64,000 nt of DNA from Geosiphon pyriformis uo1 (lineage: Eukaryota; Fungi; Glomeromycota). Numbering within the stretch: position 1 is the first letter of the stretch; each line of letters opens with the position of its first letter. The stretch covers positions 62,001 through 126,000 of the forward strand of contig JAAOMT010000657.1 of assembly GCA_016748015.1 (NCBI GenBank). The letters are read 5' to 3'. The position numbers and the translations under genes are program-made. This document shows, piece after piece, positions 1 through 62,239 of the stretch. Below the pieces are notes generated by a model, which saw only the letters and a program-made list of their open reading frames with translations, was not told the origin of the DNA and did not search any database.

Positions 1-2995
1 AAAAAAATAAGACAGCATCTTGTGTTTAGCTTGTAAAGATACTCTCTTAGATGAAGAGATGTGAAAAGACATTCTTGAAAGAGGAGGAGCATGTGACGAG
101 ACATGCCAATACACAATCCTGATTAACAACTGGGTACAAAAGGGAACACCCATCGACAATGCCTAGAAATAAGCATTAAGACGCCTGGAAAAATACCCAC
201 ACAATGAAGATGAAATCTGGAGAATGGCATATGCTATGTTAGAAGACGCCACAACAGAGGAGCTGAGAGAAATTAAAAACAATTCACTATCTCTACCTGA
301 GCCTGAATATGTCCAAACTTTCAATGCCTTTAGTGACATTGAAGACGATCCAGAGAAATTTCATGAGCACTACCAACAATTAGCATCCACAAAAAAGGAA
401 CAGAAGCAATGCTTAGAAGAGATAAACACCTGACTATGTGACCACTGTTTGATCTCATGTGACTTCCAGTATTGTGATAAGTGTAACCTCATCTACAATC
501 CACCACTACGCATGATCTACACGATCCCAGAAGAAAAAGAACCAATCAACAGCTGTGCATCAGAATCAGAATTGCTGATCAATCGTGCTTCAAACTCCGA
601 TGATGATGACAATAACAACAGTTCGAGCTCTGGTCAAGATGGCAATGACAATGACAACAGTATAAACTCAGATTCAAACTCTGATTCAGGCCCCGAACAA
701 TATATTACACTCCCTGACCTCACCAAAAACCAAGAACTTAAATGGTTTAGTGATAATAACGAAGGTATCATGTCAGAACGAGTGCATAATACTGATGCAG
801 AGTTTAATCTAAGGTATTCAGAAAAAGATGCCATCAAATTGGAACCACATTCACACATCTGCCTTGATTTGAAAATAGTGCTGGAAATTCCAGCAACAAC
901 AATGGTTCAATTAGCATCTAGAAATAGTTTAGTGAAAAGAGGGATTAATATAAGAGAAGGAATAATTGATGTGAGATATATAGGAAATATTATCGCTATG
1001 CTACAAAATGACTCAGAAAAGACCTATATAATAGAGTCCAACAAAAAGATAGCACAGGCAATATTCCTGTCTCTGGTTAGAGTAGCTCAGTTAGTATCAG
1101 TGGGAAAGAAGGAGGAATTAGGAATAACAGCGAAAAGAATACAGGGATTTGAATCAACAGGTAGAATAGATATGCCAGTCAATATGGCAGAAGAAAAAAT
1201 TGTTGGCCAAGGAGAAATTATCTCAACTGGTCAAGCAATTTCCATTCCATCATATGACCAGTACATGATAACAATAGAGAGGAAGGTAAAAGACCAAGCA
1301 CAAATTTTTGAAGCAGAAGCAAGTCTTTGTGAATCAGGAGAAGTTGGACTCATCAATCTCCACATACCAGTCAAGAACTATAACCACATCAAAATTTCCA
1401 TTTACAACAACACTGGAAATATTGTCAATATACTGGAAAGAACTATCATCAGATATTTGACCATAGAAATAGAGAATCAATCACTAAACACCATTCCAGA
1501 CTTTCCACAGCTTTGTGAATATGTCAATATCACATCACAAACAATATATGGACAAAGCAAATGTTATTTGTTCCAACCAGAACAGTTGGAACAAATGAAC
1601 ATAGGAAACTTAGATTCACTCCAACGTATGTAACTTAAGATGTTGCTCAATAATTTCAACGACATCTTTGCCAGTGAAAACAAATTTGGCCGAACTGACA
1701 TCATCCAGCATCAGATCAAGACTGGAGATACAATGCCAATTAAACAAAGAGCATACAGAGTACTACCAGCCAGCCATAAGATTATCCATCAAGAGATAAA
1801 CCGAATGCTTGACAATGGGCTAATTCAGCCATCAATAAGCTTATGGTCATCACCAGTGGTACTCGTCTGAAAAAAGAATGAGAAAATTCACTTTTGTGTA
1901 GATTATAGAAAACTCAATGGAGTAACTTGTAGAGATAGCTACCTCATGCCATGAATCCAAGAATTATTCAATGCTTTTGGTGGAAACAAATGGTTTTCAA
2001 CATTAGATCTGGACAGTGGTTATTGGCAAGTAGCCATGGATCCAGCCAACAAAGAGAAAACAGCATTCACCACAAGGAAAGAGAATTTCGAATTTGAAGT
2101 AATGCCATTTGGCTTAACCAATGTTCCAACAACTTTCCAACAGCTAATGGAAATCATTTATACTGGCTTATTGTGGAAATCAGTAGTTGTATACTTGGAC
2201 AACACCAATGTATTCTCAAAAACATTTGATGATAATCTTCATTATCTTCAACAAGTGTTCGAAAGATTAAGAAGAGCAGAACTAAAGTTAAATGCAACAA
2301 AGTGCTTCTTCAGCAAGACAAAACTAAAATTCTTGGAACACATAGTCAGCAAAAATGGCATCAAAATGGATCCAGAGAAAATAGAGATAGTAAAGAACTC
2401 TTAAGTGCTGGCCAATATGACAGAACTGAAATTATTCTTGGAATTCACCAGCTACTATCAGCATTTTATCAAGAACTTTTCTAAGATAGCACAGCCACTC
2501 AACCAACTGCAAACCAAGAATACAAAATATGAATGGACAGAAAGTTAACAAGAAGCTTTTAATATTCTGAAAAGAAAGCTTATTCAAGCTCCAGTACTGA
2601 TTTATTCAGATCACAGCAAATCATTCATTATCACTACTGATGCATCTGGCCAAGCATTAGGAGCAGTATTATCTCAGAGAGAACCAGATGGCAGGAAACA
2701 TCCAGTAGCATATGCTAACAGAGATTTAACACCAGCTGAAAAGAACTATAGAACACCAGAATAAGAATACTTAGCAATATACTGAGCAGTCATAAAATGG
2801 AAAAAATACTTGAGCCAGAAGTTTGAAGTATACACAGATCACAAAGGATTAACATCACTTCAAAAACAAGAATTTGGAGATGAAAGACAGTCAAAATGGA
2901 AAATGGCACTTGCACCATATAATTATACTATACATTATAAAAAAAGAAAAGACAACAGAAATGCTGACAGTTTGTCGCAAATGAGACAAATCTAA
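1..2995 (+). pseudogene. pol: GypA-1 pol (Cys-rich region, dUTPase, RT, RNase H), many stops; ends at conserved TAA after NADSLSQMRQI
   Basis: SPVVLV, DYRKLN, MPFGLTN, YLDN(T), TDAS, VYTDHK and NADSLS motifs across ORFs 449-2995. Confidence 0.92.
743..1162 (+). pseudogene. dUTPase domain within GypA-1 pol (degenerate)
   Basis: HNTDAEFNL (AGFDL), ASRNSL (RSS/G), GIIDVRYIGNI (GxIDxxYxG), KIAQ and RIQGFESTG (RGxxGFGSTG): the five trimeric dUTPase motifs in order. Confidence 0.88.
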
Positions 2996-3058
2996 AGAAC
3001 AGTTCAATCCAAAAATATAACAAAACCAGAACAATATCTACAAAAAACATAACAAAAG

Positions 3059-4440
3059 ATAAACATACAAAAATATCAACAACTGCAACATTATATAAAC
3101 ACTTAACAGTTCAAGGAGAATTTATCTCAAACAGAACAAAAGAGTATTAAACAACAATCAAAATATTTTATCACTAACCAAAATATACTGTATCAAAAAA
3201 ATAGAAGAGATCTAAAGCAACCAACTAGAGTAATTACAGAGCCAGAAAAAGAGACAATATTATTCAACATGTACTCAAATCCAACAGCAGGACACTTTCA
3301 CAAAGAAGCAACCATGGAAAGAACCAGAAAAAAATACTATTGGCCATTAATATATCCAGATATCATCCAATATGTTCAAAATTGTGATGCTTGTCAGTGA
3401 AAAGAAGGAACAAGACCCAGTAAACCATTAAGACCAATCAAAGTGGGACAACTATTCGACCGGATTGGAATTGATTTAGTCGGACCATTAACAATTACCA
3501 GCAGAGGAAACAGGTACATAACAATAGCCATAGACTATCTCACTAAATGGCCAGAGGTGAAAGCAATTCAAAAAGCAGATGCAAAATCTGTTGTCAAATT
3601 TGTTCATCAAGATTTAATTTGTCAACACAGATGTCCAAAGGAATTATTATCAGACTAAAGAACTCATTTTGTGAACAAAACATTAACAGAATTGAGCCAA
3701 AGATTCGGAATTAAGAGACCACTATCATCACCATACCATTCACAAACCAATAGATTAGTCGAAAAATTCAACAGAACATTGTGTGAAGCAATAGCTAAAC
3801 TCAGCCAAAAAAACCAAAATGATTGGGATTTGTTGATATTATCAATACTATTTGCTTATCAGACAATGAAGCAAGATACTACACAAGCAACATCATTTGA
3901 ATTAGTATATGGTAGAACAACAACACTACCAGTGGAAATAGAAGTCAACACATACCCAACTAAACCAATAACAGAAAAAAATTTCAAAAACACATTGTTG
4001 AGAAGAACATATGACTTAATGGAAACATTAGAAAACAAACGACGAAGAACAGCTGATAACATACAAAGATCACAAGAAAAACAAAAAGAAAGACATGATA
4101 ACCAACTACCAGATAAACCAGTTGAGTTCAGGATTGGAGACAAAGTACTACTACATCGTACCAAAGTGGAAAAACAATGGAGTGGAAAATTTGACTCCAA
4201 ATGGGATGGACCATTTCACATAGAAGAAATTCTAGGAAATAGAGCTTACAAATTAAGATTAATAACAAAATCTTGACCAAAGCAGCACATGGAGATCAAC
4301 TGAAACCCTACCACTATACAGCATCATCATCCACCAGTAATATTCCACAATTAAGAGTACAGAGAATACTAGTTCAATCAAATAAGATTTCATGAGATCT
4401 GAAACCAATCATTATCATTGACAACAACACATCCAATTGA
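3059..4440 (+). pseudogene. GypA-1 integrase as a separate ORF (start ATG decayed to ATA); HHCC, DDE and GPF modules
   Basis: GHF...CDAC, IGIDLVGP, LLSD, VEKFNRTL, WDGPF; ATG is intact in GypA-3 at 24403-24405. Confidence 0.88.
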
Positions 4441-4493: not shown

Positions 4494-5123
4494 ATGGAAA
4501 TTACAGACAATATCCATTCACTAATCCAACAAATTTTTCAATTAATCCAACACTAGGAGATGGAAATTACAATCAATCAACAAACCATTCATTACAAAAA
4601 TACAGCAAAGATACCACAAAACAAAGCACAAAAAAAACTTGAAAATGTTGTTGACAAGATCATGACCAAAATAAAATTGGCCATAAAAGAACAATAAATA
4701 GTCGGATTACACAAAGAACTTACCAGAGAAACTTGGACTTGGTGGACACAACAATTTCCAAAAAATTATTGTTACTTTTACTTGGGACAACATGTAAATA
4801 TCCAGAACTTATATACAGATAAAACAAAGTGGTTATTTGACACAACAATACTATAACAACTAGAACATTTTGTAAAGAAAAACAACTTATCTACACAAGC
4901 TTGAGCTATATACTAAATACACACAGCATTTCAGGATTGACCAGGAATCCTACTCAACAAAGCAATAAATACAGTTACCAATAATCAATTGAGAAAAATT
5001 ACCAATGCTCAATTTGAAAAATTACAGACTCAAATAACACAAGTAATTCTCGAAAACGAAATTCAGGAAATACTTCAAGAGGGAGAATTAAAAGAATTTG
5101 ATTTCAATGGAGCTCAATATTAA
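4494..5123 (+). pseudogene. GypA-1 ORF3, ~209 aa, unknown function
   Basis: Manual translation MEITDNIHSL...YFYLGQ...QFEKL...GAQY* stays in one frame; internal stops are explainable as C>T changes; homolog at 22341-22969 (-). Confidence 0.75.
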
Positions 5124-5133
5124 AAGGAGGGGA
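5122..5133 (+). promoter_or_regulatory. GypA polypurine tract
   Basis: AAAAGGAGGGGA ending 3 nt before the LTR start TGTTA. Confidence 0.85.
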
Positions 5134-5136
5134 TAA

Positions 5137-6034
5137 TGTTATTCATAGAATATAGGAAATATAGTATTATTAGTCAGTAGATATTAACCAATCAGATGTG
5201 GATGTAGTAAAATGTGGAATTCTAAGATTCTTCTCAAGAATTGCAGGATTCCAGGAATTACAAGATTCTCACACAAGAAATTGCAGGATTCCAGAATTCC
5301 AGGATTCCTCTCAAAGGAATTGCAGGATTCCAAGAATTCCAGAATTCCTGTCGTAAAGAATTGAGGAATTGAGGAATCTCAATTATGTATATATAGCAGT
5401 AGTGTTAGAAGTTGAAAAAGAGACATCTGAGTTTAGATTTAATCTAAGCAACCCTCTACATCACAAATATCAATAAATAACTATTTTTATACCTTAATTT
5501 ATCCTCCACTATCAACTTCATGTTGATAGTAACAAATACTTAAACATGCTGGAACAATAGCTCTTGATCACAGTTATTAATAGGATACTAATCAAAAATT
5601 GCCTTGGCTCATTTTTTTATTTTATTTCTGTTTTTTTTATTTCTTTTCTTTATTTTATTTTCTTTGTTGTTGTATACTAATTGATTAAAAAATTAAGTGC
5701 TGAGTTATTGACATCAAGGATAGCCTGGTAAAAGACTCAGAAATAAGGGTAAGATTTTTATATATTATTGGATAGCTTACCAGAAAGGCACGACTACCAG
5801 ACTAAATCCAGCCACCACAATAAGAAAGAAATTGGGAAAACTCTCAAAAGAATACATTTACTATTGATGCTATTAAATCTCTGTTCATTATATAAAGAAC
5901 TCAACCAAAACCTTCAGATCACATAAAACCTTCGGAATTACTACCACCCACATCAACAGAAATCAACATAGCTTTTGAGCACCAAGTTACAGGTTTGTTA
6001 TTTAATTCCACAGCAAAAATAATCACCTGTAACA
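5137..6034 (+). repeat. GypA-1 3' LTR
   Basis: TGTTA...GTAACA; TATA at 5388-5395, AATAAA at ~5472; homologous to 21481-22327 (-) and 16565-16821. Confidence 0.88.
5213..5380 (+). repeat. U3 tandem repeats of the GypA LTR (GAATTGCAGGATTCCAGGAATT-like units)
   Basis: About 4 degenerate 35-40 bp units; also present at 22090-22260 (-). Confidence 0.75.
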
Positions 6035-8491: not shown

Positions 8492-9805
8492 TTATACTTG
8501 ATTTTTGTTGATCATTTGAGTTGGTATTACCACAACAGGCAACCAATCAGATCATTTGTGATATTTTTTGAATTGTGTGCTGTGAACAGGTCGATCATTA
8601 AAGATTGTTTTAGATTGATCTTGAAGAATATAAGAACTATTGTTCAAAACTTTGTTGATTATAAAGAGTCCTTTTTACCAGCTAGAAAATTTATTACCAT
8701 AGACATTGTCTCTGTCTAAATAGTATTTTAATACCAAGTCACCAACACTTAAAAAAAGTGTTTTATAGGTTTTCTTCTTTTTAAGCTTTTCTTGAAACTG
8801 TTTTATCTTTTCAAAAGCAACTATTTGTGCTTTTACCAATAAGTCAAGAATGGTACCAAGTCTTCTTTGCAAAATTTCTTTGTAATTTGCTATTGTGATC
8901 TCTTCAAAAGGTATTGTCTCAATGTTAGTTTCTATTGGTAGTGTTGCCATGCATCCATAGAGTAGATAAAAAGGTTCATAATTTGTTATGTCATGATTTA
9001 CAGTTCTATAAGCAAACAAAGCTGAAGGCAGTACTTTGTCTCATAAGTTTGTTTCTTCACTTGTTTTGGCTAGAGTTTCACATAGTGTTCTATTAAAACG
9101 TTCTACTAGATTATTTGTTTAGGGGTGATAAGAGGAGAAAAGTTTGTAATGTATTCCCATTTTTCTACAAAGTTCTTCAATCAGTGTACTGAGAAAAACT
9201 TTTCCTTTATCAGATAAATGTTCTCTGGAGCAGCCATGATGGCAGATAATATCTTCATAAATGAAATTGGCTATTGAGACTGCTATTTGGTCTGAAGTGG
9301 CTCTTGCTTCTATCCACTTTGTAAGATAGTCAATAGCTGTAATAATGTATTTGTTGTCATCAGAGGTTATTGTTAATGGTCTAACAGCATCTATACCAAT
9401 CCTGTTAAATAGTTGGCCAACAGAGATTGAATGGATATCTTTTTTTCTATTGGGTTTTTCTCTTTTTTGGCAGATATTACAGGTTTTAATGTACTCAGCA
9501 ATGTCTTTTCCCAAGGTAGGCCAATAATAGTGAGCTAGAGTTTTCTAAATTGTTTTTGTTTTCCCAAAGTGTCTAGCTAACAGATCAGTGTACATGTTAT
9601 AGATCACAATTTCTTTTTCTTCAAATCTTATAACTCTTTGGGAATGGTCAGGATTTTTTCTGTTTCTTTTGTATAGTTGGTTCTGGCAAATCAAATAGAA
9701 ATTTGATTGTTTGCACAAATGTTCTTTTTGCTGTCGATTGTATTCCAATGGGTATTGTCCTTTACCTAAAAATTCCATTAAGGCAGATTAGTTGTCTAAG
9801 TCTAT
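8492..9805 (-). pseudogene. GypB-2 integrase (separate ORF, broken)
   Basis: HFG...CNIC, IGIDAV, LSDKG fragments. Confidence 0.88.
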
Positions 9806-9870
9806 TATCGTGTTTGGTTGTAAGAGAATTACTAATAATTAAGTTGGTTTGGTTTAAGGTAGTTGTACTG

Positions 9871-12560
9871 TCACTGAATAATAAGTCTAAAGAGAGTGTT
9901 GGTGTTTTGATAATGCACTCCTTTGTCATGTTGAATGTCATAGTCGAATTCGTCCAAGTGGAGTATCCAGCAAGTTATTCTTTTATATTTCAGCTTTTTT
10001 TTGTTGTGTAACCAAACCAAAGCTTGGTAATCTGTTACCACCAAAAACTTCACACCAAAGAAATACTTATCTCAGTAGCTGGTAGTCCAAACTACTGCTA
10101 AACATTCCTGCTTAGTAACTGAATAGTTCTTTTCTGTTGGTGTAAGGGTTCTACTGACATAGGCTATTGCATGTTCTCTGCCATCTTCATCTTTTTATGA
10201 AAGAACAGCACCAAGTCCATAACCAGATGCATCAGTGTAAAGGATGAAAGGTTGATTCAGATCAGGTTGTTTGAGAATAGGTTCTGTAACCAATTTTTCT
10301 TTGAGGGTTTTAAATGCTTTTTGCTGATGTGTGCTCCAATGGTAGTTGACATTTTTTCTGAGTAGCTGATTGAGTGGAGAGGCAATTTTGGAGAAATTCT
10401 TAACAAATTTGCGATAATAAGAGGCCAAACCAAGAAAAAAATGTAACTCATAAACATTCATTGGTTGTCTTATGTTCTGAACTTTTTCCACTTTGGCTGG
10501 ATCAGGAAAGATTCCATCTTTTGTAATAAGATGGCCAAGGAATTGGGTGAATTGTCTTCCAAAGAAAGATTTAATTGGGTTGATCTTGAGATCTGCATTT
10601 CTGAGAAAATCAAAAACCTTTTGCAAATGTTAAAGATGTTTATTACAGGTTTTTGAGTACACCATTATATTGTCCAAATAGACTAGAACAAAGTTTTCTT
10701 TTACTGATTCAAATACTTTATCCATTAAGTGTTGAAAGATGGGAGGGGCATTGGTAAGACCAAAAGGCATGATTGTGAATTCATAAGTGCCATACTTGGT
10801 AATAAAAATGGTTTTCTTCCAGCTTTCTGGATCCATCTCTACTTGCCAGAATCCAGCAGTTAGATCAATGATTGAAAAGAAAGCAGCATCTTTGAATTGG
10901 TCCAGCATTGTATCAATCTTAAGAAGTGGGTATATGTCTCTTTCAGTAATGGCATTTAATTGGCAGTAGTCAACACAGAAGTGTAGGGTTCTATCTTTCT
11001 TGGATACCACTAGAACTGGAAAAGTCTATTCACTCTTGGTTTCTTATATGAATTCAAGTTTTTTTATCTGGTTTATTTTTTTTTTAATAAACTCATCATT
11101 TTGGCGATTGAATTGGTAAGGCTTCAAATGAATGAGACAAGTTTCTCTGGTGGTAATAGTGTGTTGTATCACATGAGTTCATCTTAGAGTATCACCTTCT
11201 TTTGAGATAACTAGGCTGTTTCTTGTTAACAGATTTTCAATGTCTATCTTTTTTTCTTCTGGGGAGGGTTCTCTTTGTTTTACTACTAATAATTGGATCT
11301 CAGGTAGTTCATTTTCAAAAAACTTCTGTACTTTTTTTAATTCATCTCTTGGTATTAGGCTAACTGGTTCCCAATCTTTGTAATAGATCAGACATAATTT
11401 GTATTCATCACTTGGAGAATACAAAGGTTTATTGCACCAGCACTGGGCACAAAGGCCATGCCACCAATAATGGTACTTGGCTTTCTTGCCAGGCTTTTGG
11501 TCAAAGATTCTTCTAAGAATATTATATTAGGGCCAGCAGATCAGCTTGCCATTCACAATGATTCCTTCTTTGTCAGCTTTAATATTATCCAGTAGCTTGC
11601 CATTGCTGGTGAAGGTAGTGTATGCAAGTTCAGCAGTTTCTTCTTGTTCCTCTTGTTCTTCTTCTTTATTACTCTCTTCATCATCTGATTCATCTGATTG
11701 TTCTTTTTTTTGATTCTGTTTGTTTGCTGGGGGAGTTGTCCAATGACAGCATTTAACTACTATGGGCTTCTCACCATATCTGATGGTTAATTCACACAGT
11801 TCATAGTCGAGTAAGGCTTTTGTTTTCTTGAGCCACTCATTGTCAACAATGATGGTGTATTTTTTTGCTTCAGAAACCTCCATGTCAGTTTTAATACTGA
11901 TGTCATTGATGCGAACAGAAATAGTTTTAACAATACCAAGACTTTTTTTTTTATTGCCATGTACATTGGTTATAGATCTAGTAGAAGATTCGTCAATTTT
12001 TCTGCCAATTGCTTCTAAGAAATGTTTGGCAATGACACTCATGGATGATCTACTGTCTAAGATTAAGTCAATGAAATAACCAGCCACTTAGACTTTGCAA
12101 ATTAAAGGAGTAATGTTGCTGTTGTCAGCAAGTTCAGCTTGACAAGAGCATTTGTTGGTTTTTGGTATTTTCTTCTTAGGGATCAGAGATTTGTGAAGAT
12201 CTTTTCTAAACTGTGGATGGATCATCAGCTAGCCAAAGGTAATATGTGCTGGGGTTTCCATGAGATCTTTAACAACAGAATAAGGTCCAGATTTTTGTAC
12301 TATTTCTGGAGGTTTTAGCTTTGGAGGATTCTTAAAAACTTTAGCCTTTAGTGGCTCATTATTATCAACAGTTAATGTGGATGGTTTGTTTGGATCCAAA
12401 ACGAAATCAACCTTGGCTTTTTTCTTTTTCCTTGTTGATTCTGTGGTGTTAATTGCTAGTTCATTCCTGTCATGGTTATTATTAGTTAAGTTAAAGACAT
12501 AAAAGGAGTTTTCTTCTGATTGGCTTGCACTCTCACCCTTTGAAGGTGTGCCTACTAGTT
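9871..12560 (-). pseudogene. pol: GypB-2 pol: protease, Cys-rich insert, RT, RNase H
   Basis: LILDS, MPFGLTNAP, YLDN, YTDASG, VTDYQAL fragments. Confidence 0.9.
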
Positions 12561-21480: not shown

Positions 21481-24400
21481 TGTTATAGTTGAATTATTTG
21501 GAATTTTAAGTCAAATAACAAACCTGTAACTTGGTGTTCAAAAGCTATTTCCGTCAATAATATTCTGCAAATGTTGTATCTGAAGGTTTTGATGGAGTCT
21601 TTTGTATAATGGACAGAGATCCGATAGTGCGGCGATTTGTTGTTTGTTGTTAATTGTTTTCCAATTTCTTTCTCAGCTTGGTGGCTAGATTTATTCTAAC
21701 AGTCATGTTCTTCTGGTAAGCTAACTGATAATATATATAAATCTACCCTTATTTCTGGGTCTTTTACCAGGCTATCCGTGATGTCAATAACTCAGTGCTT
21801 TTAATCCTCAATCAATTAGTAGGCACAACAGAATTAAAGAAAGAAAGAAATAAAATAAAGAAAATAACAATGAAAATAAGCCAAGGCAATTATAGCTATA
21901 ATCAAGAGCTATTGTTCCAGCGTGGTTAAGTATCAATTACTATCAACATAAAGTGTTGATAGTAATGAGTGGATTGAGATATAAAATAATTATTTATTTG
22001 ATAATTGGGAATTGGAAGGTTGCTTAGATTAAATCTAAATTGAGAGGTTCATCTTTTCAGCTTCTAATCTTGCTGCTATATATACATAATTAAGATTCCT
22101 CAATTCCTTGATTCTTCACAACAGGAATCCTGAAATTCCTGGAATTCTGTGATTTCTTTGAGAAGAATCTTGGAATTCTGGAATCCTGCAATTCCTCATC
22201 AGGAAATTCTGAAATTCCTGGAATCCTGCAATTCCTGAGAGAAATCCTAAAATTCCACATTTACTATGCCTACTTCTGATTGGCTACTAATCATGTTAAT
22301 ATATTTCCTATATTTCTATAAGTAATATTATTTCCTCTTTTTAATATTGAGCTTTATTGAAATCCAACTCGTTTAATTCCTCCTCTTGAAGTATTTCCTG
22401 GATTTTGTTTTCGAGAATTACTTGTGTTATTTGGGTCTGTAATTCTTCAAATTGAGCATTGGTGATCTTTCCCAATTGATTACTGGTAACCATATCCATT
22501 GATTTGTTGAGTAATATTTCTGGTCTATTCTAAAATGCTGTGTGTATTCGGTATATGGCTCAGGCCTGTGTGAATAAGTTGTTCTTTTCCACAAAATGTT
22601 CTAATTGTTGTAGTATTCTTTTGTCGAATAATTGCTTTGTTTTATCCGTATATAGATTCTGGATATTTATATGTTGTCCCAAGTAAAAATAACAATAGTT
22701 TCTTGAAAATTGTTGTATCCATTAATTTCAAGTTTCTTTAGTCAACTCTTAATATAGTGTCTCTTTTGTCAACTCTCTTATTGTTAATTTTACTTTCGCA
22801 ATGATTTTGTCCACCGTATTTTCAGTTTCTTCTGTGTTCTGGGTTGCAATGTCTTTCTAGTATTTTGATATCGAATGGTTTGTTGATTGATTGTAATCTC
22901 CATTTTCTGGTGTTGGATCAATTGAAAAAGTTGTTGTACTAGTAAATGAATGTTGTCTGTAATTTCCATTTTCTGATATTTTCTGTCATGTCTACCGTGT
23001 CTTTATATATTTTTTTGCTGAATTAATTTAACATGTTGTTGTCGATAATAACTATTGGTTTCAGATCTCGTGGAATCTCATCTGGTTGGACTATTATTCT
23101 CTGTACTCCTAATTGTAAAATATTACTGGTAGATGGTAGTGTAATGTTGTGGTATGGTTTCAGTCAATCTCCATGTGCTGCTTTGGTTAAAATTTTGTTA
23201 TCCAGTCTTAATTTGTAAGCTCCATTTTCTAGAATTTCTTTTATGTGAAATGATCCATCCTATTTGGGATTGAATTTTCAACTCCATTGTTTTTCCACTT
23301 TGGTATGATGTAAGAGTACTTTGTCTCCAATCTTGAATTCAACTGGTTTGTCTAGTAGTTGACTATTATGTCTTTTTTTCTGTTTCTTTTGTGACTTTTG
23401 AATATTATCAGCTGCTCTTCTTCATTTGTTTTTCAATGTTTCCATTAATTCATATGTTCTTCTTAGCAATGTTTCTTGAAAATTCTCTTCTGTTATTGAT
23501 TCAGCTAGATATGTACTAATTTTTCTTTTTACTGGTAATGTTGCTGTTCTATCATATACTAATTTGAATGGTGTTGCTTGTGTAGTACCTTGCTTCATTG
23601 TTCGATAAGCAAATAATACTGATGGTATGAACAAATCCCATTTGTCCTGGTTTTTTTGGCTGAGTTTGGTAATTGCTTTACACAATGTTCTGTTGAATCT
23701 TTCGACTAATCTATTGGTTTGTGGATGGTATGGTAATGATAATGATCTCTTAATTCTGAATCTTTGGCTCAATTCTGTTAATGTTCTGTTCACAAAATGA
23801 GTTCTTTGGTCTGATAATAATTCCTTTGGACATCCGTGTCAACAAATTAAATCTTGATGAACAAATTTGGCAATGGATTTTGCATCTGCTCTTTGAATTG
23901 CTTTCACCTCTGGCCATTTAGTGAGATAGTCCATGGCTACTGCTATATATCTGTTTTCTCTGCTGGTAATTGTTAATGATCCAACTAAATCAATTCCAAT
24001 CCAGTCAAATGGTTGTCCCATTTTGATTGGTCTTAATGGTTCATTGGGTCTTGTTCCTCCTCTTTGCTGATAAGCATTACAATTTTGAACATATTGGATG
24101 ATGTCTGAATACATTGATGACCAATAGTATTTTTTTCTGGTTTTTTCTATGATTGTTTCTTTGTGAAAGTGTCTGGCTGTTGGATTTGAGTGCATGTTGA
24201 ATAATATTGTCTCTTTTTTTGGCTCTGTAATTACTCTGGTTGGCTGATCTAGATCCCTCCTATTTTTCTGATAAAGTATATTTTGGTAAGTGATAAAATA
24301 TTTTGATTGTTGTTTGATCCTCTTTCATTCCATTTGAGATAAATTCTCCTTAAACTGTTGAATGTTTATATAATATTAGAGTTGTTAATATTTTTGTATG

Positions 24401-24797
24401 TTCATCTTTTGTTATTTTTCGTTGGTATTGTTCTGGTTTTGTTATATTTTTGGGTTGAAATGTTCTTAGATTTGTCTTATTCACGACAAATCATTAGCAT
24501 TTCTGTTGTCTTTTCTTTTCTTATAGTGTATAGTATAAGTATATCGTGATAGTGCCATTTTCCATCTGGATTGGTGACTGTCATCAAATTCTTGCTTTTG
24601 AAGTGATGTTAACCCTTTATGATTCATGTATATATCAAACTTTTGGCTTAAATATTCATTCCACTTCATGACTGCCCAATAGATTGCTAAATGTTCTAGT
24701 TCTGGTGTTCCATAGTTCTTTTCGGCTGGTGTTAGATCTTGGCTGGCATATGCTACTGGATGTTCTCTGCCATCTGGTCCCTTCTGAGATAGTATTA
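21481..24797 (-). mobile_element. GypA-3 3' half (RH C-terminus, INT 23023-24405, ORF3 22341-22969, 3' LTR 21481-22327)
   Basis: Colinear with GypA-1 2670-6034; truncated by a deletion junction at 24797/24798. Confidence 0.9.
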
Positions 24798-30795: not shown

Positions 30796-33290
30796 ACATT
30801 TTTAACTTAACTGATGATGACCATAACATGGATGAATTAGCAATCAACCCCTCTGAATCCACAAGAAAGAAGAAGAAAGCCAAAGTTGATTTCATTCTAA
30901 ACCCCAATAAAGCTTCTACATCAACTGCTGACAACAATGAGCCCCCAAAAGCCAAAGTTTTCAAGAACCCTCCAAAGTTGGAACCCCCAGAAATAGTACA
31001 AAAATTTGGTCCCTATTCTGTTGTTAAAGACCTTATGGAAACCCCAGCACATATAACTTTTGACCAATTAATGACCCATCCACAATTCAGAAAAGATCTT
31101 TGCAAATCTCTGATTCCAAAGAAAAAGACACCCAAAACCAACAAACGCCCTCGCCAAGCTGGACTTGCTGACAATAGCAATGTCACTCCTCTAATTTGTA
31201 AAGCCCAAGTGGCTGGCTACTTCATCGATTTGATCCTAGACAGTGGATCATCTGTTAGTGTTATTGCTAAACACTTTCTTGAAGCAATTGGCAGAAAAAT
31301 TGATGAACCATCCACACGACCAATGACCAATGTGCATGGNNNNNNNNNNNNNNNNNNNNNNNNNNNNNNNNNNNNNNNNNNNNNNNNNNNNNNNNNNNNN
31401 NNNNTGCTTTAATGAAATTTTTGGGTAAATGACAATACCCGCTGGACTATAATCGACAGCAAAGAGAACATTTGCGCAAACAATTAAATTTCTATTTGAT
31501 TCACCAGAACCAGTTATATAAAAGAAATAGAAAAGATCCTGACTGCTCCCAGAGAGTCATTAGATTTGAAGAAAGAGAAATTGTGATCTACAATATGCAC
31601 ACTGATCCATTAGCTGGACACTTTGGAAAAACAAAAACAATTCAGAAAACTTTAGCTTGCTATTATTGGCCTACTTTGGAAAAAGACATTGCTGAATACA
31701 TCAAAACCTGTGATATCTGCCAAAGAAGAGGAAAACCCAATCGCAAGGAAGATATCCATCCAATCTCTGTTGGTCAACCATTTGATAGAATTGGTATAGA
31801 TGTTGTTGGACCTTTAACAGTAACTTCTGATGGCAACAGATACATTATNNNNNNNNNNNNNNNNNNNNTCACTGGTTGTAGAACAAAGAGAACTCTCTCC
31901 AGAAGAAAGAAAGATAGACATTGAAAACCTGCTGGCTAGAAATAGCCCAGTTATCTCAAAAGAAAGTGAACCTCCTGGACGTACACATGTAATACAACAC
32001 ACCATCATTACCAGAGAAACTCGCCCCATCTATTTGAAGCCCTATCAATCCAACCAGTGCAATGATGAGTTTATCAAAAAGGAAATAACCCGAATAAAAA
32101 ACCTTGGATTCATACAGGAAACCAAGAGTGAATGGGCATTCCCAGTTGTAGTGGTATCCAAGAAAGGAGGAACCCTATGCTTTTGTGTTGACTATTACCA
32201 ATTAAATGCCATTACTAAAAGAGACATGTACCCACTTTCCAAGATTGATGCAATGTTAGACTAATTCCATGGTGCTGCTTTCTTCTCAACCATTGACTTA
32301 ACTACTAGATTCTGGCAAGTAGAGATGGATCCAGAAAGCAGAAAGAAAACTGCCTTCATCACTAAGTATGGTACCTACGAATTCACAGTCATGCCTTTTG
32401 GTCTCACAAATGCTCCTCCCACCTTTCAATGCTTAATAGACAAAGTATTTGAATCAGTAAAAGAAAACTTTGTTCTAGTCTACTTGGACAACATAATGGT
32501 ATACTCAAAAACCTGGGATGAACACCTTGAACATTTGCAAAAGGTTTTTGACCTCTTTAGAAATGCTGGTCTCAAGATCAATCCAATCAAATCATTCTTT
32601 GGATGTCAATCCACCCAGTTCCTTGGCCATCTTATTACAAAAGATGGAATCTTTCCTGATCCAGCCAAAATTGAAAAAGTTCAAAACATTAGACAACCAA
32701 TGAATGTTTATGAACTATGCTCTTTTCTTGGTTTGGCCTCTTATTATCACAAGTTTGTCAAGGATTTCTCCAAAATTGCTGCTCCTCTCAATCAGCTACT
32801 TAGAAAAAACATCAATTATTACTGGGGCACTCATCAACAAAAAGCATTTGAAATTCTGAAGAAAAAACTGGTTACAGAACCCATCCTCATGCAACCTAAT
32901 TTGGATCAACTTTTTATCCTCCACACTAATGCATCTGGCTATGGACTTGGTGCTGTTCTTTCCCAAAAAGATGAAGATAACAGAGAACATGCCATAACAT
33001 ATGCCAGTAGAACTCTCACACCAGCAGAAAAAAACTACTCAGTCACTAAGCAAGAAAGTTTAGCAGTAGTTTGGGCTACCAGCTACTGGGACAAATATCT
33101 TAAGAGTGTGAAATTTTTGGTGATAACAGATCACCAAGCTTTGGTTTGGCTACACAACAAAAGAAACCTGGAACATAAATGGATAATTTGCTGGATACTC
33201 CACTTGGACGAATTCGACTATGACATTCAACACCACAAAAGAGTTAATCATCAAAACATTGACGCTTTCTCTAGACTTACCATCCAGTAA
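30738..33290 (+). pseudogene. pol: GypB-6 pol (PR-RT-RH; gaps and a misplaced INT segment)
   Basis: LILDSGSS; ORFs 31830-32264 and 32325-33290. Confidence 0.85.
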
Positions 33291-33355
33291 TAGTAAAACC
33301 CTCTCAAACCAAACCAACTTAATTATTTGTAACTCCCCCACAAACAAACACGATA

Positions 33356-34530
33356 ATGGACTTGGACAACTACTCTGCTTTAATGAAATTTTTGGGTAAA
33401 TGACAATACCCGCTGGACTATAATCGACAGCAAAGAGAACATTTGCGCAAACAATTAAATTTCTATTTGATTCACCAGAACCAGTTATATAAAAGAAATA
33501 GAAAAGATCCTGACTGCTCCCAGAGAGTCATTAGATTTGAAGAAAGAGAAATTGTGATCTACAATATGCACACTGATCCATTAGCTGGACACTTTGGAAA
33601 AACAAAAACAATTCAGAAAACTTTAGCTTGCTATTATTGGCCTACTTTGGAAAAAGACATTGCNNNNNNNNNNNNNNNNNNNNNNNNNNNNNNNNNNNNN
33701 NNNNNNNNNNNNNNNNNNNNNNNNNNNNNNNNNNNNNNNNNNNNNNNNNNNNNNNNNNNNNNNNNNNNNNNNNNNATATTGTTTGTTGCCATGGCTGCCC
33801 CAAAGAACTTTTATCTGATAGAGGAAGAGCTTTTCTCAGTACACTGTTTAAAGAACTTTGCAGAAAAATGGAAATACGTCATAAACTCTCTTCCTCTTAT
33901 CACCCCCAAACAAATGGCCTAGTGGAACGTTTCAATAGAACACTATGTGAAACCCTAGCCAAAACCAGTAAAGAAACCAACCTATGAGACAAAGTATTGC
34001 CTTCAGCCTTGTTTGCTTACAGAACTGTGAATCATGACATAACAAGTTATGAACCCTTTTATCTGCTCTATGGACAAATGGCAACTCTACCAATAGAAAC
34101 AGATATAGAAACAATATCTTTTAAAGAAATAACAATAGGAGATTACAAGAACATTTTGCAAAGAAGACTTGGTAATATTCTTGACTCATTAGTAGAAGCA
34201 TGGATAATTGCCTTTGAAAAGATAAAACAGGTCCAAAAGAAGCTCAAAATCAAAAAAACCTATAAAACACTTTCCTTAAGTGTTGGTGACTTAGTTTTGG
34301 AATACCGTTCAGACAGAGACAATGTCTATAGTGATAAATTCTCTAGCCGGTGGAAAGGACTCTTTATAGTCAACAAAGTTTTGAACAATGGTTCTTATAT
34401 CTTACAAAATCAATATGGAACAATATTCAGTGATCGCCCTGTTCATGGCACGCGACTCAAGAAATATCACAAACGACCTGATTGGTTACTTGTTGTGGTA
34501 ATACCGACCCAAATGATCAGCAAAAATTAG
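33356..34530 (+). pseudogene. GypB-6 integrase (separate ORF starting MDLDNY)
   Basis: ATG at 33356 is in the frame of ORF 33443; HTDPLAGHFG, VERFNRTL, RWKG(P)F. Confidence 0.87.
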
Positions 34531-37821: not shown

Positions 37822-39135
37822 TTATATCTGATTTTTGCTGATCATTTGGGTCGGTATTACCACAACAGGTAACCAATCAGGTTGTTTGTGATATTTCTTG
37901 AGTCATGTACCATGAACAGGGCGATCATTGAAGATTGTTCCATATTGATCTTGTAAGATATAAGAACCATTGTTCAAAACTTTGTTGACTATAAAAGGTC
38001 CTTTCCAGCAGCTGGAGAATTTATTACCATAGACATTGTCTCTGTCTGAATGGTATTCCAAAACTAAGTCATCAACACTTAAGAAAAGTGTTTTATAGGT
38101 CTTTTTCTTTTTGAGCTTCTTTTGGAACTGTTTTATCTTTTCAAAGGCAATTATCTATGCTTCTACCAATGAGTCAAAAATGGTACCAAGTCTTCTTTAC
38201 AAAATGTCCTTGTAATCTCCTATTGTTATTTCTTCAAAAAGTATTGTTTCTATATTTGTTTCTATTGGTAGAGTTGCCATTTGTCCATAGAGCAGATAAA
38301 AGGGTTCATAACTTATTATGTCATGATTCACAGTTCTGTAAGTAAACAATGCTGAAGGCAATACTTTGTCCCATAGGTTGGTTTCTTTACTGGTTTTGGC
38401 TAGGGTTTCACATAGTGTTCTATTGAAACGTTCCACTAGGCCATTTGTTTGGGGGTGATAAGAGGAAGAGAGTTTATGACATATTCCCATTTTTCTGCAA
38501 AGTTCTTTAAACAGTGTACTGAGAAAAGCTCTTCCTCTATCAGATAAAAGTTCTTTGGGGCAGCCATGGCAACAAACAATATCTTCATAAATGAAATTGG
38601 CAATTGAGACTGCTGTTTGATTTGGGGTGGCTCTTGCTTCTACCCACTTTGTAAGATAGTCGGTAGCTGTAATAATGTATCTGTTGCCATCAGAAGTTAC
38701 TGTTAAAGGTCCAACAACATCTATACCAATTCTATCAAATGGTTGACCAACAGAGATTGGATGGATATCTTCCTTGCGATTGGGTTTTCCTCTTCTTTGG
38801 CAGGTATCACAGGTTTTGATGTATTCAGCAATGTCTTTTTCCAAAGTAGGCCAATAATAGCAAGCTAAAGTTTTCTGAATTGTTTTTGTTTTTCCAAAGT
38901 GTCCAGCTAATGAATCAATGTGCATATTGTAGATCACAATTTCTCTTTTTTTAAATTTAATAACTCTCTGGGGGCAGTCAGGATCTTTTTTATTTCTTTT
39001 ATATAACTGGTTCTGGCGAATCAAATAGAAATTTGATTGTTTGCACAAATGTTCTCTTTGCTGTCGAGTATAGTCTGGTGTGAATTGTTATTTACCCAAA
39101 AATTCCATTAAGGCAGAGTAGTTGTCCAAGTCCAT
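37822..39135 (-). pseudogene. GypB-7 integrase (separate ORF)
   Basis: ORF 38197-39048 with HHCC and D-D-E residues. Confidence 0.9.
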
Positions 39136-39200
39136 TATTGCGTTTGTTTGTGGGAGAGTTACAAATAATTAAGTTGGTTTGGTTTGAGAGGGTTTTGCTA

Positions 39201-41889
39201 TTACTAGATGGTAAGTCTGGAGAGAGCATCGGCATTTTGATGATTAGCTCTTTTGCAGTGTTGAATGTCATAGTTGAATTCATCCAAGTGGAGTATTCAG
39301 CAAGTTATCCATTTATGTTCCAGGTTTCTTTTGTTGCGTAGCCAAACCAAAGCTTGGTGATCTGTTACCACCAAAAATTTTACACCCTTAAGATATTTGT
39401 CCCAGTAGCTGGTAGCCCAAACTACTGCTAAACATTCTTGCTTAGTGACTGAGTAGTTTCTTTCTGCTGGTGTGAAAGTTCTACTGGCATATGCTATGGC
39501 ATGTTCCCTGTCATCTTCGTCTTTCTGGGAAAGAACAACACCAAGTCCATAGCCAGATGCATCAGTATGGAGGATAAAAGGTTGATCCAGATTAGGTTGC
39601 ATGAGAATGAGTTCTGTAACCAGTTTTTCTTTCAGAATTTCAAATGCTTTTTGTTGATGAGTGCCCCAGTGATAATTGATGTTTTTTCTAAGTAGCTGAT
39701 TGAGAGGAGCAGCAATTTTGGAGAAATCCTTGACAAACTTGTGATAATAAGAGGCCAAACCAAGGAAAGAGCATAGTTCATGAACATTCATTGGTTGTCT
39801 AATGTTTTGAACTTTTTCAATTTTGGCTGGATCAGGAAAGATTCCATCTTTTGTAATAAGATGGCCAAGGAACTGGGTGGATTGACATCCAAAGAATGAT
39901 TTGATTGGATTGATCTTGAGGCCAGCATTTCTAAAGAGGTCAAAAACCTTTTGCAAATGTTCAAGGTGTTCATCCCAGGTTTTTGAGTATACCATTATGT
40001 TGTCCAAGTAGACTAGAACAAAGTTTTCTTTTACTGATTCAAATACTTTGTCTATTAAGCATTGAAAGGTGGGAGGAGCATTTGTGAGACCAAAAGGCAT
40101 GACTGTGAATTCATAGGTGCCATACTTAGTGATGAAGGCAGTTTTCTTTCTGCTTTCTGGATCCATCTCTACTTGCCAGAATCTAGTAGTTAAGTCAATG
40201 GTTGAGAAGAAAGCAGCACCATGGAATTAGTCTAACATTGCATCAATCTTGGAAAGTGGGTACATGTCTCTTTTAGTAATGGCATTTAATTGGTAATAGT
40301 CAACACAAAAGCATAGGGTTCCTCCTTTCTTGGATACCACTACAACTGGGAATGCCCATTCACTCTTGGTTTCCTGTATGAATCCAAGGTTTTTTATTCG
40401 GGTTATTTCCTTTTTGATAAACTCATCATTGCACTGGTTGGATTGATAGGGCTTCAAATAGATGGGGCGAGTTTCTCTGGTAATGATGGTGTGTTGTATT
40501 ACATGTGTACGTCCAGGAGGTTCACTTTCTTTTGAGATAACTGGGCTATTTCTAGCCAGCAGGTTTTCAATGTCTATCTTTCTTTCTTCTGGAGAGAGTT
40601 CTCTTTGTTCTACAACCAGTGATTGGATTTTAGGTGGTTTGTTTTCAAAGAACTTTTGGACTTCTTTTATTTCTTTATGGGGTATCAAGCTGATTGGTTC
40701 CCAATCTTTATAATAGATCAGGCAGAACATGCATTCATTACTAGGAGAATACAATGGTTTGTCACACCAGCACCAGGCACAAGGACCATGCCACCAATAA
40801 CTGTATTTGGCTTTCTTGCCTGGCTTTCTGTCAAAGGTTCTTCTGAGCATGTCATAATAAGGCCAGCAGATCAGCTTGCCATTAACAATGATTCCTTCTT
40901 TATCTGCCTTGACATTATCCAGTGGTTTGCCATTGCTGGTGAAGATGGTAAAGTTCAGCAGTTTTTTCTTGTTTTTCTTGTTCTTCTTTTTCCTCACTTT
41001 CTTCATCATCTGATTCATCTGATTCATTTTCTTCTGGGCTTTGCTTGGGCACTGGGGGAGTTATCCAATGGCAACACTTAACCACAATGGGTTTCTCACC
41101 ACATCTGATGGTTAGTTCACAGAGTTCATAATCAAGCAAAGCTTTTGCTTTCTTGAGCCATTCATTGCTAACAATGATGGTGTATTTTTTCACTTCAGAT
41201 ACTTCTATATCAGTTTCAATGCTGATGCCATTGATGCAGACAGGAATGGCTTTGGCTATGCCAAGACCTTTTTTCTTATCACCATGCACATTGGTCATTG
41301 GTCGTGTGGATGGTTCATCAATTTTTCTGCCAATTGCTTCAAGAAAGTGTTTAGCAATAACACTAACAGATGATCCACTGTCTAGGATCAAATCGATGAA
41401 GTAGCCAGCCACTTGGGCTTTGCAAATTAGAGAAGTGACATTGCTATTGTCAGCAAGTCCAGCTTGGCGAGGGCATTTGTTGGTTTTGGGTGTCTTTTTT
41501 TTTGGAATCAGAGATTTGCAAAGATCTTTTCTGAATTGTGGATGGGTCATTAATTGGCCAAAGGTTATATGTGCTGGGGTTTCCATGAGGTCTTTGACAA
41601 CAGAATAGGGGCCGGATTTTTGTACTATTTCTGGGGGTTCCAACTTTGGAGGGTTCTTGAAAACTTTGGCTTTTGGGGGCTCATTGTTGTCAGCAGTTGA
41701 TGTAGAAGCTTTATTGGGGTCCAGAACGAAATCAACTTTGGCTTTTTTCTTCTTTCTTGTCTATTTAGAGGGGTTGATTGCTAATTCATCCATGTCATGG
41801 TCATCATCAGTTAAGTTAAAAGTGTAAAAGGGGTTTTCTTCTGGTTGGCTTGCACTCTCACCCTTTGGAGGTGCGCCTACCAGTTTAAA
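39201..41889 (-). pseudogene. pol: GypB-7 pol (PR, acidic and Cys-rich insert, RT, RH)
   Basis: ORFs 40915-41643, 40227-41027 and 39297-40166. Confidence 0.92.
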
Positions 41890-45851: not shown

Positions 45852-48534
45852 TTTAAACTGGTAGGCGCACCTCCAAAAGGTGAGAGTGCAAGCCAACCAG
45901 AAGAAAACCTTTTTTATGTTTTTAACTTAACTGATGATGACCATGACATGGATGAACTAGCAATCAACACCTCAGAATCAACAAGGAAGAAGAAGAAAGC
46001 CAAGGTTGATTTCATTTTAGATACAAATAAACCATCCACATTAACTGCTAATAATAATGAGCCACCAAAGGCTAAAGTTTTTAAGAACCCTCCAAAGTTG
46101 GAACCCCCAGAAATAGTAAAAAAATCTGGTCCTTATTCTGTTGTCAAAGATCTCATAGAAACTCCTGCACACATTACTTTTGGCCAACTAATGATCCACC
46201 CACAATTTAGAAAAGATCTCTGCAAATCTCTAATTTCCAAGAAGAAAACACCAAAAACCAATAAATGCTCTTGCCAAGCTGGACTTGCCAACAACAGCAA
46301 TGTTACCCCATTAATTTGCAAAGCCCAAGTGGCTGGCTATTTTATTGACTTGATTCTGGACAGTGGATTATCTGTTAGCGTCATTGCCAAACACTTTTTG
46401 GAAACAATTGGAAAAAAGATTGATGAACCTTCCACCTGACCAATGACCAATGTACATGGTGACAAAAAGAAAGGTCTGGGCATAGCCAAAGCTGTTCCTG
46501 TCTGTATCAATGGCATCAGCATTGAAACTGACATGGAAGTTTCTGAAGCCAAGGAATACACTATTATTGTTGGAAATGAATGGCTCAAGAAAGCCAAAGC
46601 ATTACTTGACTATGAACTTTGTGAGCTAACCATCAGATGTAGTGAGAAGCCCATTGTGGTTAAGTGTCACCACTGGACAATTCCTCCAACACCAAAACAG
46701 AATCAGGAAGAAGAACAATCAGAGGAATCAGATGATGAAGAAAGTGATGATGAAGAAGAACAAAAGGAACAAGAAAAAACTTCTGAACTTGCCTATACTA
46801 CCTTCACCAGCAATGGATAATGTCAAAGCTGACAGAAAAGGAATCATTGTAAATGGCAAGCTGATCTGCTGGCTCTACTATAATATTCTAAGAAGAACTT
46901 TTGACCAGAAGCCTAGCAAGAAAGCCAAGTACCATTATTGGTAACATGGTTCTTGTGCCCAGTGCTGGTGCAATCAACTCTTGTATTCTCCAAGTGACAA
47001 ATGCAAATCCTGCCTGATCTATTACAAAGATTGGGAACCAATCAGTTTGATACCTAGAGAAGAATTGAAAGAAGTCCAAAAGTCTTTTGAAAATGAACCA
47101 CCTGAGATCCAATCACTAGTTGTAGAACAAAGAAAACTCTCTCCAGAAGAAAGAAAAATAAACATTGAAAATCTGCTGGCTAGAAACAGCCCAGTTATCT
47201 CAAAAGAAGGTGATACTCCTGGATGAACTCATGTAATACAACACACCATCACCACCAGAAAAACTCACCCCATCCATTTGAAGCCTTATCGATCTAATCA
47301 CCAAAATGATAAGATCATCAAGAAAAAAATAAACTGGATGAAAGAACTTGGATTCATACAAAAAACCAAAAGTGAATGGGCTTTCCCAGTTGTAGTGGTA
47401 TCCAAAAAAGGTGGAACCCTACACTTCTGTGTTGATTATCACCAATTAAATGCCATCACTGAAAGAGACATGTACCCACTTTCCAAGATTAATACAATGC
47501 TGGACCAATTCAAAAATGCTGCTTTTTTTTCAACTATTGATCTAACTGCTGGATTCTGGCAAGTAGAGATGGATCCAGAAAGCCGGAAGAAAACCGCCTT
47601 CATCACCAAGTATGGCATCTATGAATTCACAGTCATGCCTTTTGGTCTCACCAATGCCCCTCCCACCTTTCAACACTTAATGGATAAAGTATTTGAATCA
47701 GTGAAAGAAAACTTTGTTCTGGTCTATCTGGACGATATAATGGTGTACTCAAAAACCTGGGATGAACATCTTGTACATTTGCAAAAGGTTTTTGATCTTC
47801 TCAGAAATGCAGGTCTTAAGATCAACCTGATCAAATCTTTCTTTGGAAGACAATCCACCCAATTCCTTGGTCATCTTATCACAAAAGATGGAATCTTTCC
47901 TGACCCAGCTAAGGTTGAAAAAGTCCAGAACATTAGACAACCAATGAATGTTCATGAACTATACTCTTTCCTTGGTTTGGCTTCTTATTATCACAAATTT
48001 GTCAAGGATTTCTCCAAAATAGCTGCTCCACTTAATCAGCTACTCAGGAAAAACATCAACTACCATTGGAGCACACACCAGCAAAAAGCTTTTGAAACTC
48101 TAAAGGAAAAACTAGTTACTGAACCAATTCTGAAGCAACCTGATCTAGATCAACCTTTCATCCTCTACACTAATGCATCTGGCTATGGACTTGGAGCTGT
48201 TCTATCCCAAAAAGATGAAGATGGCAAAGAACATGCCATAGCATATGCCAGTAGAACTCTCTCACCAGCAGAGCAGAACTACTCAGTGACTAAACAAGAA
48301 TGCCTGGCAGTAGTATGGGCTACTAGTTATTGGAACAAATATCTTCTTGGTGCCAAATTCCTGGTAGTAACAGATCACCAAGCTTTGGTTTGGCTGCACA
48401 ACAAAAAGAAGCTAGAACACAAAAGATTAACTCGCTGGATACTCCACTTGAATGAATTCGACTATGATATTCAACATCGCAAAAGAGCTAATCATCAAAA
48501 CACTGATGCTCTCTCCAGACTTACCACCAAGTGA
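45852..48534 (+). pseudogene. pol: GypB-5 pol; RT-RH ORF 47278-48534 retains YLDD
   Basis: LILDSG, YLDD, ASGYGLG, TDHQAL, DALSR. Confidence 0.92.
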
Positions 48535-48593
48535 CAGTACAACCACCTCAAACCAAACCAAACTAATTATTAGTAACTTTCCCACAAACAAAC

Positions 48594-62174: not shown

Positions 62175-62239
62175 CAATACAACTACCTCAAACCAAACCA
62201 ACCTAATTATTAGTAATTCTCTCACAACCAAACACGATA

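Follow-up and report, generated by a model that had tools for sequence, protein, structure and literature searches.

Integrase encoded in a separate reading frame in a group of Ty3/Gypsy retrotransposons, and its possible translation by termination-reinitiation

In a stretch of 64,000 nucleotides (nt) from Geosiphon pyriformis uo1 (contig JAAOMT010000657.1, positions 62,001 to 126,000; the window hereafter), a long terminal repeat (LTR) retrotransposon that we call GypA encodes integrase in an open reading frame (ORF) of its own, separated by a stop codon and a spacer from the ORF encoding reverse transcriptase (RT) and RNase H. The same split occurs in a second family of the window, GypB, and is inherited across a group of Ty3/Gypsy elements, likely fungal. 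In this group integrase may be translated by termination-reinitiation at the first downstream AUG on the same RNA, a mechanism that we favour and judge to have about an even chance of being correct. LTR retroelements normally bring integrase into the particle within the Gag-Pol polyprotein. A lineage in which the enzyme is separately encoded must translate, dose and package it otherwise.

The RNase H/integrase junction of GypA and GypB

The window is a nest of LTR and long interspersed nuclear element (LINE)-like retrotransposons, all in decay. Two GypA copies, about 84% alike, are present, with the following features around the junction.

1688..2995 (+): RT-RNase H of copy 1, single frame, with 6 internal decay stops
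2970..2991 (+): 7-bp hairpin (8 bp in copy 2) immediately 5' of the RNase H stop, found in GypA only, z scores -1.8 and -3.0
2993..2995 (+): RNase H stop TAA, common to both copies (24466-24468, minus strand, in copy 2)
2996..3058 (+): spacer of copy 1, 63 nt, AUG-free, A-rich, G-poor
3050..3052 (+): second TAA of copy 1, in the integrase frame
3059..4440 (+): integrase ORF of copy 1, with ATA as start codon (3059-3061), 3 stops within the first 1200 nt and a 1-nt indel near 4260
24466..24794 (-): 3' part of RNase H of copy 2, terminated by TAA (24466-24468), joined upstream to GypB-type gag
24406..24465 (-): spacer of copy 2, 60 nt, AUG-free, with a second TAA at 24412-24414
23023..24405 (-): integrase ORF of copy 2, decayed, with an intact ATG at 24403-24405

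Copy 2 is chimeric: at 21892-26706 (-) a GypB-type LTR and gag are fused in frame, at about 24794, to the RNase H, integrase and 3' end of GypA.

An initial annotation of the window had described RNase H ending with TAA at 2993-2995 (+) and 24466-24468 (-), spacers of 63 and 60 nt with a further in-frame stop and indels, and integrase starting with ATA at 3059-3061 in copy 1 and ATG at 24403-24405 in copy 2, and all of this was borne out. The second TAA, in the integrase frame, ends 6 nt 5' of the start in both copies, and the integrase opened by either codon is 400-plus residues long. Besides the RNase H stop, which both copies share, RNase H and integrase contain 13 stop positions, every one of them present in a single copy; with the spacer included, the shared stops are the RNase H TAA and the second TAA. 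The aligner placed a 1-nt gap inside the RNase H stop, but direct reading gives TAA in both copies.

Spacer and flanks were compared on the two copies, as the same annotation had proposed. The spacer holds two indels (one of 1 nt and one of 2 nt, both within A runs), whereas the stretches compared on either side, 326 nt of RNase H and 1200 nt of integrase, have none; because of the indels the middle 50 nt of the two spacers lie in different frames. Substitutions are not elevated in the spacer (5 of 61 sites, vs 18% and 12% in the flanks), and their low number can be explained by the dearth of C and G. The spacer has A 0.60 and G 0.06-0.07; among 63-nt segments of the RT-RNase H and integrase regions of copy 1, the same A content is found in 0.6%, and the same G poverty in 1.7%. 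The indels may post-date inactivation of the element. The spacers of the window are unstructured, apart from the hairpin found at the GypA stop, which may be a chance feature. A search of Rfam with 2700-3400 gave one match, of chance level only.

Complete GypB junctions were found at five sites.

33288..33358 (+): TAA, 65 nt, ATG
48532..48602 (+): TGA, 65 nt, ATA
62172..62242 (+): TGA, 65 nt, ATG
39133..39203 (-): TAA, 65 nt, ATG
9803..9873 (-): TGA, 65 nt, ATA

All five have a stop, 65 nt and an integrase start (ATG in 3, ATA in 2), all have a second TAA ending 33 nt 5' of the start, and in all of them the integrase frame differs from that of RNase H. In a sixth copy the junction is interrupted by an N gap. 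GypB and GypA integrases are 44% identical. The spacers of the two families had been deemed alike in length and composition: length is indeed similar (65 vs 60-63 nt), but A is less abundant in GypB (0.43-0.46, with C about 0.3) than in GypA (0.60).

The split is shared by a group of related elements

The GypA integrase was searched against proteins of 220-700 residues, and 234 relatives were found. The best 120 of these 234 scored 343-417 bits. RNase H is present in none of the 120, and 102 carry a conserved Met at profile column 1, followed in all 102 by D (49), N (29) or E (24). The search of proteins of 701-2000 residues gave 34 matches, and the top fused protein scored 182 bits, vs 343-417 for the stand-alone relatives.

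DNA scans, which are independent of gene callers, provided 164 loci (numbered here with the prefix L). Loci of this group having RNase H in view are all split (17/17). Among the other loci with RNase H in view, with an integrase profile score of at least 300 bits, 20 of 24 are fused, and 4 are broken and have no ATG at the conserved column. From the stop of the RNase H ORF to the ATG, the distances at the 17 split loci are -8, 27, 30, 62, 63, 74, 89, 110, 117, 136, 158, 163, 278, 308, 365, 521 and 727 nt, with all three frames represented (4, 4 and 9 loci). In 16 of these loci a stop of its own closes the integrase frame 5' of the ATG, as it does in both GypA copies and in 5/5 GypB copies; L015 has a single in-frame stop only.

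In the RT-RNase H tree a branch with support 97 separates 14 split rows from all others, and L060 falls inside in another run. In the integrase tree, of 47 rows that are split or stand-alone, 46 join four fused plant-like rows with support 95; the label plant-like is one we presume for these four loci. Subgroups agree between the two trees, and therefore the integrase travels with its RT. Topology tests were carried out on 34 picked rows of 112 for integrase and of 81 for RT; L101, a short match, was dropped from the trees. The integrase tree rejects a grouping with L060 (p value of the approximately unbiased test, p-AU, 0.0003), but the RT tree permits the plant-like grouping (p-AU 0.85), and capture of the integrase from another lineage is therefore not supported. 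L043 is split and has ATG at the conserved column, yet neither tree places it in the main group, and it may represent either a second origin or a long branch.

The simplest alternative would be that stop and spacer are decay products of a formerly continuous pol. Window copies are decayed, mainly by C-T/G-A changes, and the GypA spacer indels reside in A runs. Still, the hypothesis is largely refuted and scarcely credible: of 14 GypA stops only that of RNase H is found in both copies, five GypB copies have the same layout, and so do loci whose frames stay open over a long distance (L010, L012) and L019, a whole element with open frames and terminal direct repeats of about 370 nt, 93-96% identical (in the measure taken against decay, both repeats are 96% alike). 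Moreover, stand-alone full-length integrases are annotated in Rhizophagus irregularis, many per genome. The split is thus an old, inherited layout and not decay, and a start codon belonging to integrase itself is likewise supported.

Since the named relatives are R. irregularis integrases, Glomeromycota-type fungi are the likely hosts of these elements. Viral contigs gave distant integrases only. Retrotransposon fragments (L087, L088, L089 and L101) were found within bacterial assemblies, one of which is Glomeribacter gigasporarum, and are probably fungal contamination.

How the integrase may be translated

According to the model that we favour, the ribosome would finish the RT-RNase H ORF at its stop, and restart at the first AUG 3' of it on the same RNA, yielding a separate integrase. 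The conserved AUG would be the one used, the full-length RNA would be the template, restart would follow termination, and free integrase would enter the particle outside the polyprotein. The same rule would serve the next junction, opening a further ORF after integrase.

The initial annotation had taken the GypA and GypB junctions to suggest a conserved mechanism. The suggestion holds for the inherited layout and for an integrase with its own start codon, but not for spacer length and A/C-richness, which are not a conserved signal: length ranges from -8 to 727 nt, A is at least 0.45 in 7/16 spacers, and 3/16 are U-rich (T 0.40-0.48), including those of L015 and L001, two of the loci that lie closest to the window in trees. 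What recurs is an AUG-free run-up, low G (at most 0.13 in 10/16 spacers) and a favourable start context. At 33 loci a purine is found at -3 in 29, and G at +4 in 28, vs 122 and 54 of 206 internal Met codons (59% and 26%). The nearest upstream ATG lies at a median of 115 nt; it is at least 90 nt away in 18 of the 27 junctions retained out of 35 (near-duplicates and loci with little upstream DNA were dropped), vs 5.3 expected from random positions in the same loci, and none of 3000 draws was as high. The final 50 nt before the integrase ATG contain 8 ATGs, vs 18 predicted from composition. The distance of the upstream ATG is in part due to low G.

Stop-start overlaps at the integrase AUG occur in L014 (AUGA, twice in a chain) and in L016 and L029 (AUG-NN-stop), in two of the three within a chain of inserted ORFs. 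At the next junction, 7 of 8 loci have a further ORF that begins with the first ATG 3' of the integrase stop, at 32-131 nt. Overlaps and next-junction ATGs are covered by one rule, restart at the nearest AUG once termination has occurred, and this agrees with the accounts given of coupled reinitiation and of LINE-1 (PMC5972666, PMC4859970).

Several points weigh against restart. Reinitiation following a long ORF is usually inefficient. ATG depletion is weak over 19 spacers (40 seen, 48.6 expected, p 0.10), and reaches 6 vs 12.7 (p 0.02) in the 14 short ones. Spacers in L019 (727 nt), L003 (365 nt) and L043 (278 nt) carry 12, 7 and 3 ATGs, respectively, which a scanning ribosome must pass. A direct overlap is found at 1/17 RNase H/integrase junctions only. 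Starts of the annotated proteins depend on gene callers, and on a length-limited search, and hence cannot count as evidence separate from the DNA. A hairpin at the RNase H stop was rejected as a general signal, z being below -2 in 4 of the 24 junctions listed, a count made without offset controls. Finally, the AUG-free zone often extends into the upstream ORF (as in L001, L010, L011 and L017), which fits the leader of a separate RNA too.

The last point, like the long spacers with several AUGs, fits the main rival, a subgenomic mRNA for integrase, formed from an internal promoter in RT-RNase H or by splicing, the spacer being its 5' leader. We regard it as unlikely, though clearly worth considering. 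The 60-200 nt preceding a well-contexted AUG are AUG-free and G-poor, as a leader would be, and even the long AUG-filled spacers (L003, L019, L043, L087) are AUG-free over their final 82-151 nt. A precedent is the minor promoter reported at a stop-codon junction of Candida Tca2, although, in the same available text, Tca2 pol itself was found to derive from full-length RNA (PMC2194720). The overlapping stop-start chains of L014, L016 and L029 require no leader, and a second junction obeying the same rule would require a second promoter. As to splicing, there is no constant acceptor: the AG closest to the ATG lies at 0-114 nt, the L015 spacer has none, and AG is found in the spacer of 3/5 GypB copies only.

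A fused RT-RNase H-integrase could still be produced through readthrough, frameshift or removal of a spacer intron. Both GypA spacers are divisible by three, AG lies directly 5' of the GypA ATG, and L015 has but a lone in-frame stop. Nevertheless, such a product is very improbable. The occurrence of all three frames, together with second stops in 16/17 loci, excludes readthrough and frameshifting as a general route; such stops also precede the ATG in both GypA copies and 5/5 GypB copies. The TGA-CTA context is found at 0/17 RNase H stops, and no donor-like GT that spares the end motif of RNase H is present 5' of the GypA stop. In-frame TGA followed by CTA was found, in contrast, between protease and RT at four loci (L003:870-875, L019:3358-3363, L029:1585-1590 and L101:2879-2884), an unusual place for LTR elements; we take it to resemble a leaky-stop context.

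A structured RNA motif preceding integrase in a subgroup of the loci

In nine loci, and in one weak variant, a 43-nt structured motif ends 0-34 nt 5' of the integrase ATG.

Motif loci: L006:583-625, L009:183-225, L010:4461-4503, L013:488-530, L023:173-215
Motif loci, continued: L032:6-48, L036:490-532, L088:159-201, L040:17-59; weak variant, L005:22-62

The motif is made of an outer stem, a purine-rich bulge or small hairpin, and an inner stem with an 8-nt loop. Pairing is kept in 96% of cells, 6 pairs are altered on both sides, and the covariation score was reached by 0/500 shuffles. The model, built from 8 loci, recovered the ninth, L040 (49 bits, outside the model), and the weak tenth. It had no match in the window, in fused loci or in viral contigs, nor in most split loci, including L087 of the same subgroup; four contaminated bacterial assemblies gave the known copy only. 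A search of Rfam with the 10 loci (E <= 5) gave two weak matches elsewhere, and none on the motif. The motif loci group with two Rhizophagus integrases. The structure, covarying and with no match in Rfam, is new here, and the covariation shows RNA-level selection on the run-up to the integrase AUG in this subgroup.

A structure so close to the AUG brings to mind internal ribosome entry, independent of upstream translation, via the 43-nt element or via unstructured A- or U-rich spacers. The A-rich, unstructured spacers of the window are compatible with the notion. We consider it improbable all the same, as neither the window nor most split loci, L087 of its own subgroup included, have the structure, Rfam offers no match to it, and spacer composition is variable.

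Termination-reinitiation may be part of a wider scenario, which we put forward tentatively, and which is somewhat doubtful. A widespread fungal Ty3/Gypsy lineage would have abandoned the polyprotein rule and become polycistronic; integrase and accessory ORFs would be made by serial stop-restart, one branch would guide ribosomes to the integrase AUG by means of its undescribed structured RNA, and the free enzyme would be packaged separately. If so, the stand-alone integrase gene would be a ready precursor for Ginger-like DNA transposons.

Classification and relation to known systems

Pfam RVT_1, RT_RNaseH, Integrase_H2C2 and rve domains occur in the order RT-RNase H then integrase, as in Ty3/Gypsy. 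Retrotrans_gag and RVP_2 were found in GypB-type ORFs; for GypA copy 1, gag and protease lie beyond the window edge. Terminal direct repeats are present at both ends of L019 and repeatedly for GypB in the window, where its LTR-like repeat has many occurrences; of GypA the window shows the 3' side alone.

5122..5577 (+): purine tract followed by TG (5137) and the probable 3' LTR of GypA; the region is common to copy 2

By domain order and repeats the element is Ty3/Gypsy, minus the single Pol: release of integrase from one Pol polyprotein, a usual though non-diagnostic trait, is lacking. The elements share with canonical Ty3/Gypsy (Metaviridae) the gag-protease-RT-RNase H-integrase order, terminal repeats, an H2C2 plus rve integrase and the GP[FY] tail. 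They differ because integrase is outside the polyprotein and needs no protease cut, because extra ORFs precede or follow it, and because in some members a stop separates protease from RT. Within Ty3/Gypsy, the groups with YPYY integrases (Athila/Tat and related) are probably the closest. In the available text of PMC2836005, YPYY integrases are placed in Athila/Tat, Cer1, Gypsy-1-I_RO and DGLT-A, and an integrase of this kind is linked to Athila/Tat and Ginger1. For an Athila/Tat placement, our integrases group with the four plant-like fused loci, and the RT grouping has p-AU 0.85, in trees built without named references.

Ginger1 is described in the same text as having a stand-alone Gypsy-type integrase of about 400 residues starting at the YPYY region (PMC2836005). 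By description it differs in having inverted repeats, no RT and C-terminal protease domains, whereas here integrase is 3' of RT-RNase H inside direct repeats. Identity with a Ginger1 DNA transposon was rejected, given the RT-RNase H directly upstream and the direct repeats of L019.

LINE-1 likewise has a stop, a spacer and a downstream ORF; its inter-ORF spacer is of 63 nt, and termination-reinitiation has been proposed (available portions of PMC5972666 and PMC4859970). LINE-1 is however a non-LTR element, and its ORF2 can start at any codon, whereas here Met and context are conserved. The match with the 63 nt of GypA is coincidental, since the group ranges from -8 to 727 nt. AUGA and AUG-NN-stop overlaps are listed for coupled termination-reinitiation in what is available of PMC5972666, and the same types seen in caliciviruses, influenza B, SART1 and fungal RNA viruses occur in L014, L016 and L029. 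Coupling goes with an overlap or a distance of no more than about 14 nt; this is seen in these three loci, whereas the window junctions, at 60-65 nt, do not. Tca2 of Candida albicans similarly has a stop within the coding region of an LTR element, by a mechanism left open in the accessible text, but is a Ty1/copia element with the break at gag/pol and not at RNase H/integrase (PMC2194720). The consulted parts of PMC7175516 and PMC2194720 describe gag/pol stops only. No description of a separate integrase ORF was found in a targeted literature search that included accessible parts of PMC3248453, PMC11952901, PMC11075540, bioRxiv 2021.03.30.436303 and PMC5009743, Repbase reports and most subscription journals being outside its scope.

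These elements offer natural eukaryotic polycistronic junctions, and a small new RNA structure, testable in yeast reporters. Intact members of the group will look broken to annotators, and Rhizophagus annotation lists the integrases as host "DDE-type integrase/transposase" genes.

Additional ORFs and other features

An ORF with its own ATG is found 3' of integrase in most split elements (4494-5123 and 34578-35234 in the window; L001, L006, L010, L011, L013, L015, L019, L087). Nine of these ORFs were scanned against Pfam, without matches.

4494..5123 (+): ORF after GypA integrase, own ATG in A-rich context, decayed
434..1633 (+): upstream pol part of GypA copy 1, bearing dUTPase (Pfam dUTPase, E 8e-14)

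In GypA the dUTPase domain is 5' of RT (434-1633). L014:3-1236 hosts two additional ORFs 5' of integrase, linked by AUGA overlaps, the second of which matches the Pfam restriction endonuclease family Mrr_cat_2 (E 5e-9). In L010:3506-4438, L019:4957-6702, L087, L006, L013 and L036 the RT-RNase H ORF runs at least 300 acidic, Cys/His-containing residues past RNase H; the L010 extension had no Pfam match. In L047 integrase is 5' of RT-RNase H, in a single frame, an inverted order that we assume to be that of Gmr1-like elements. Lastly, gag and protease frames of GypB share about 30 nt around TTTAAAC (30714-30744 and 45460-45490), a probable -1 frameshift site.

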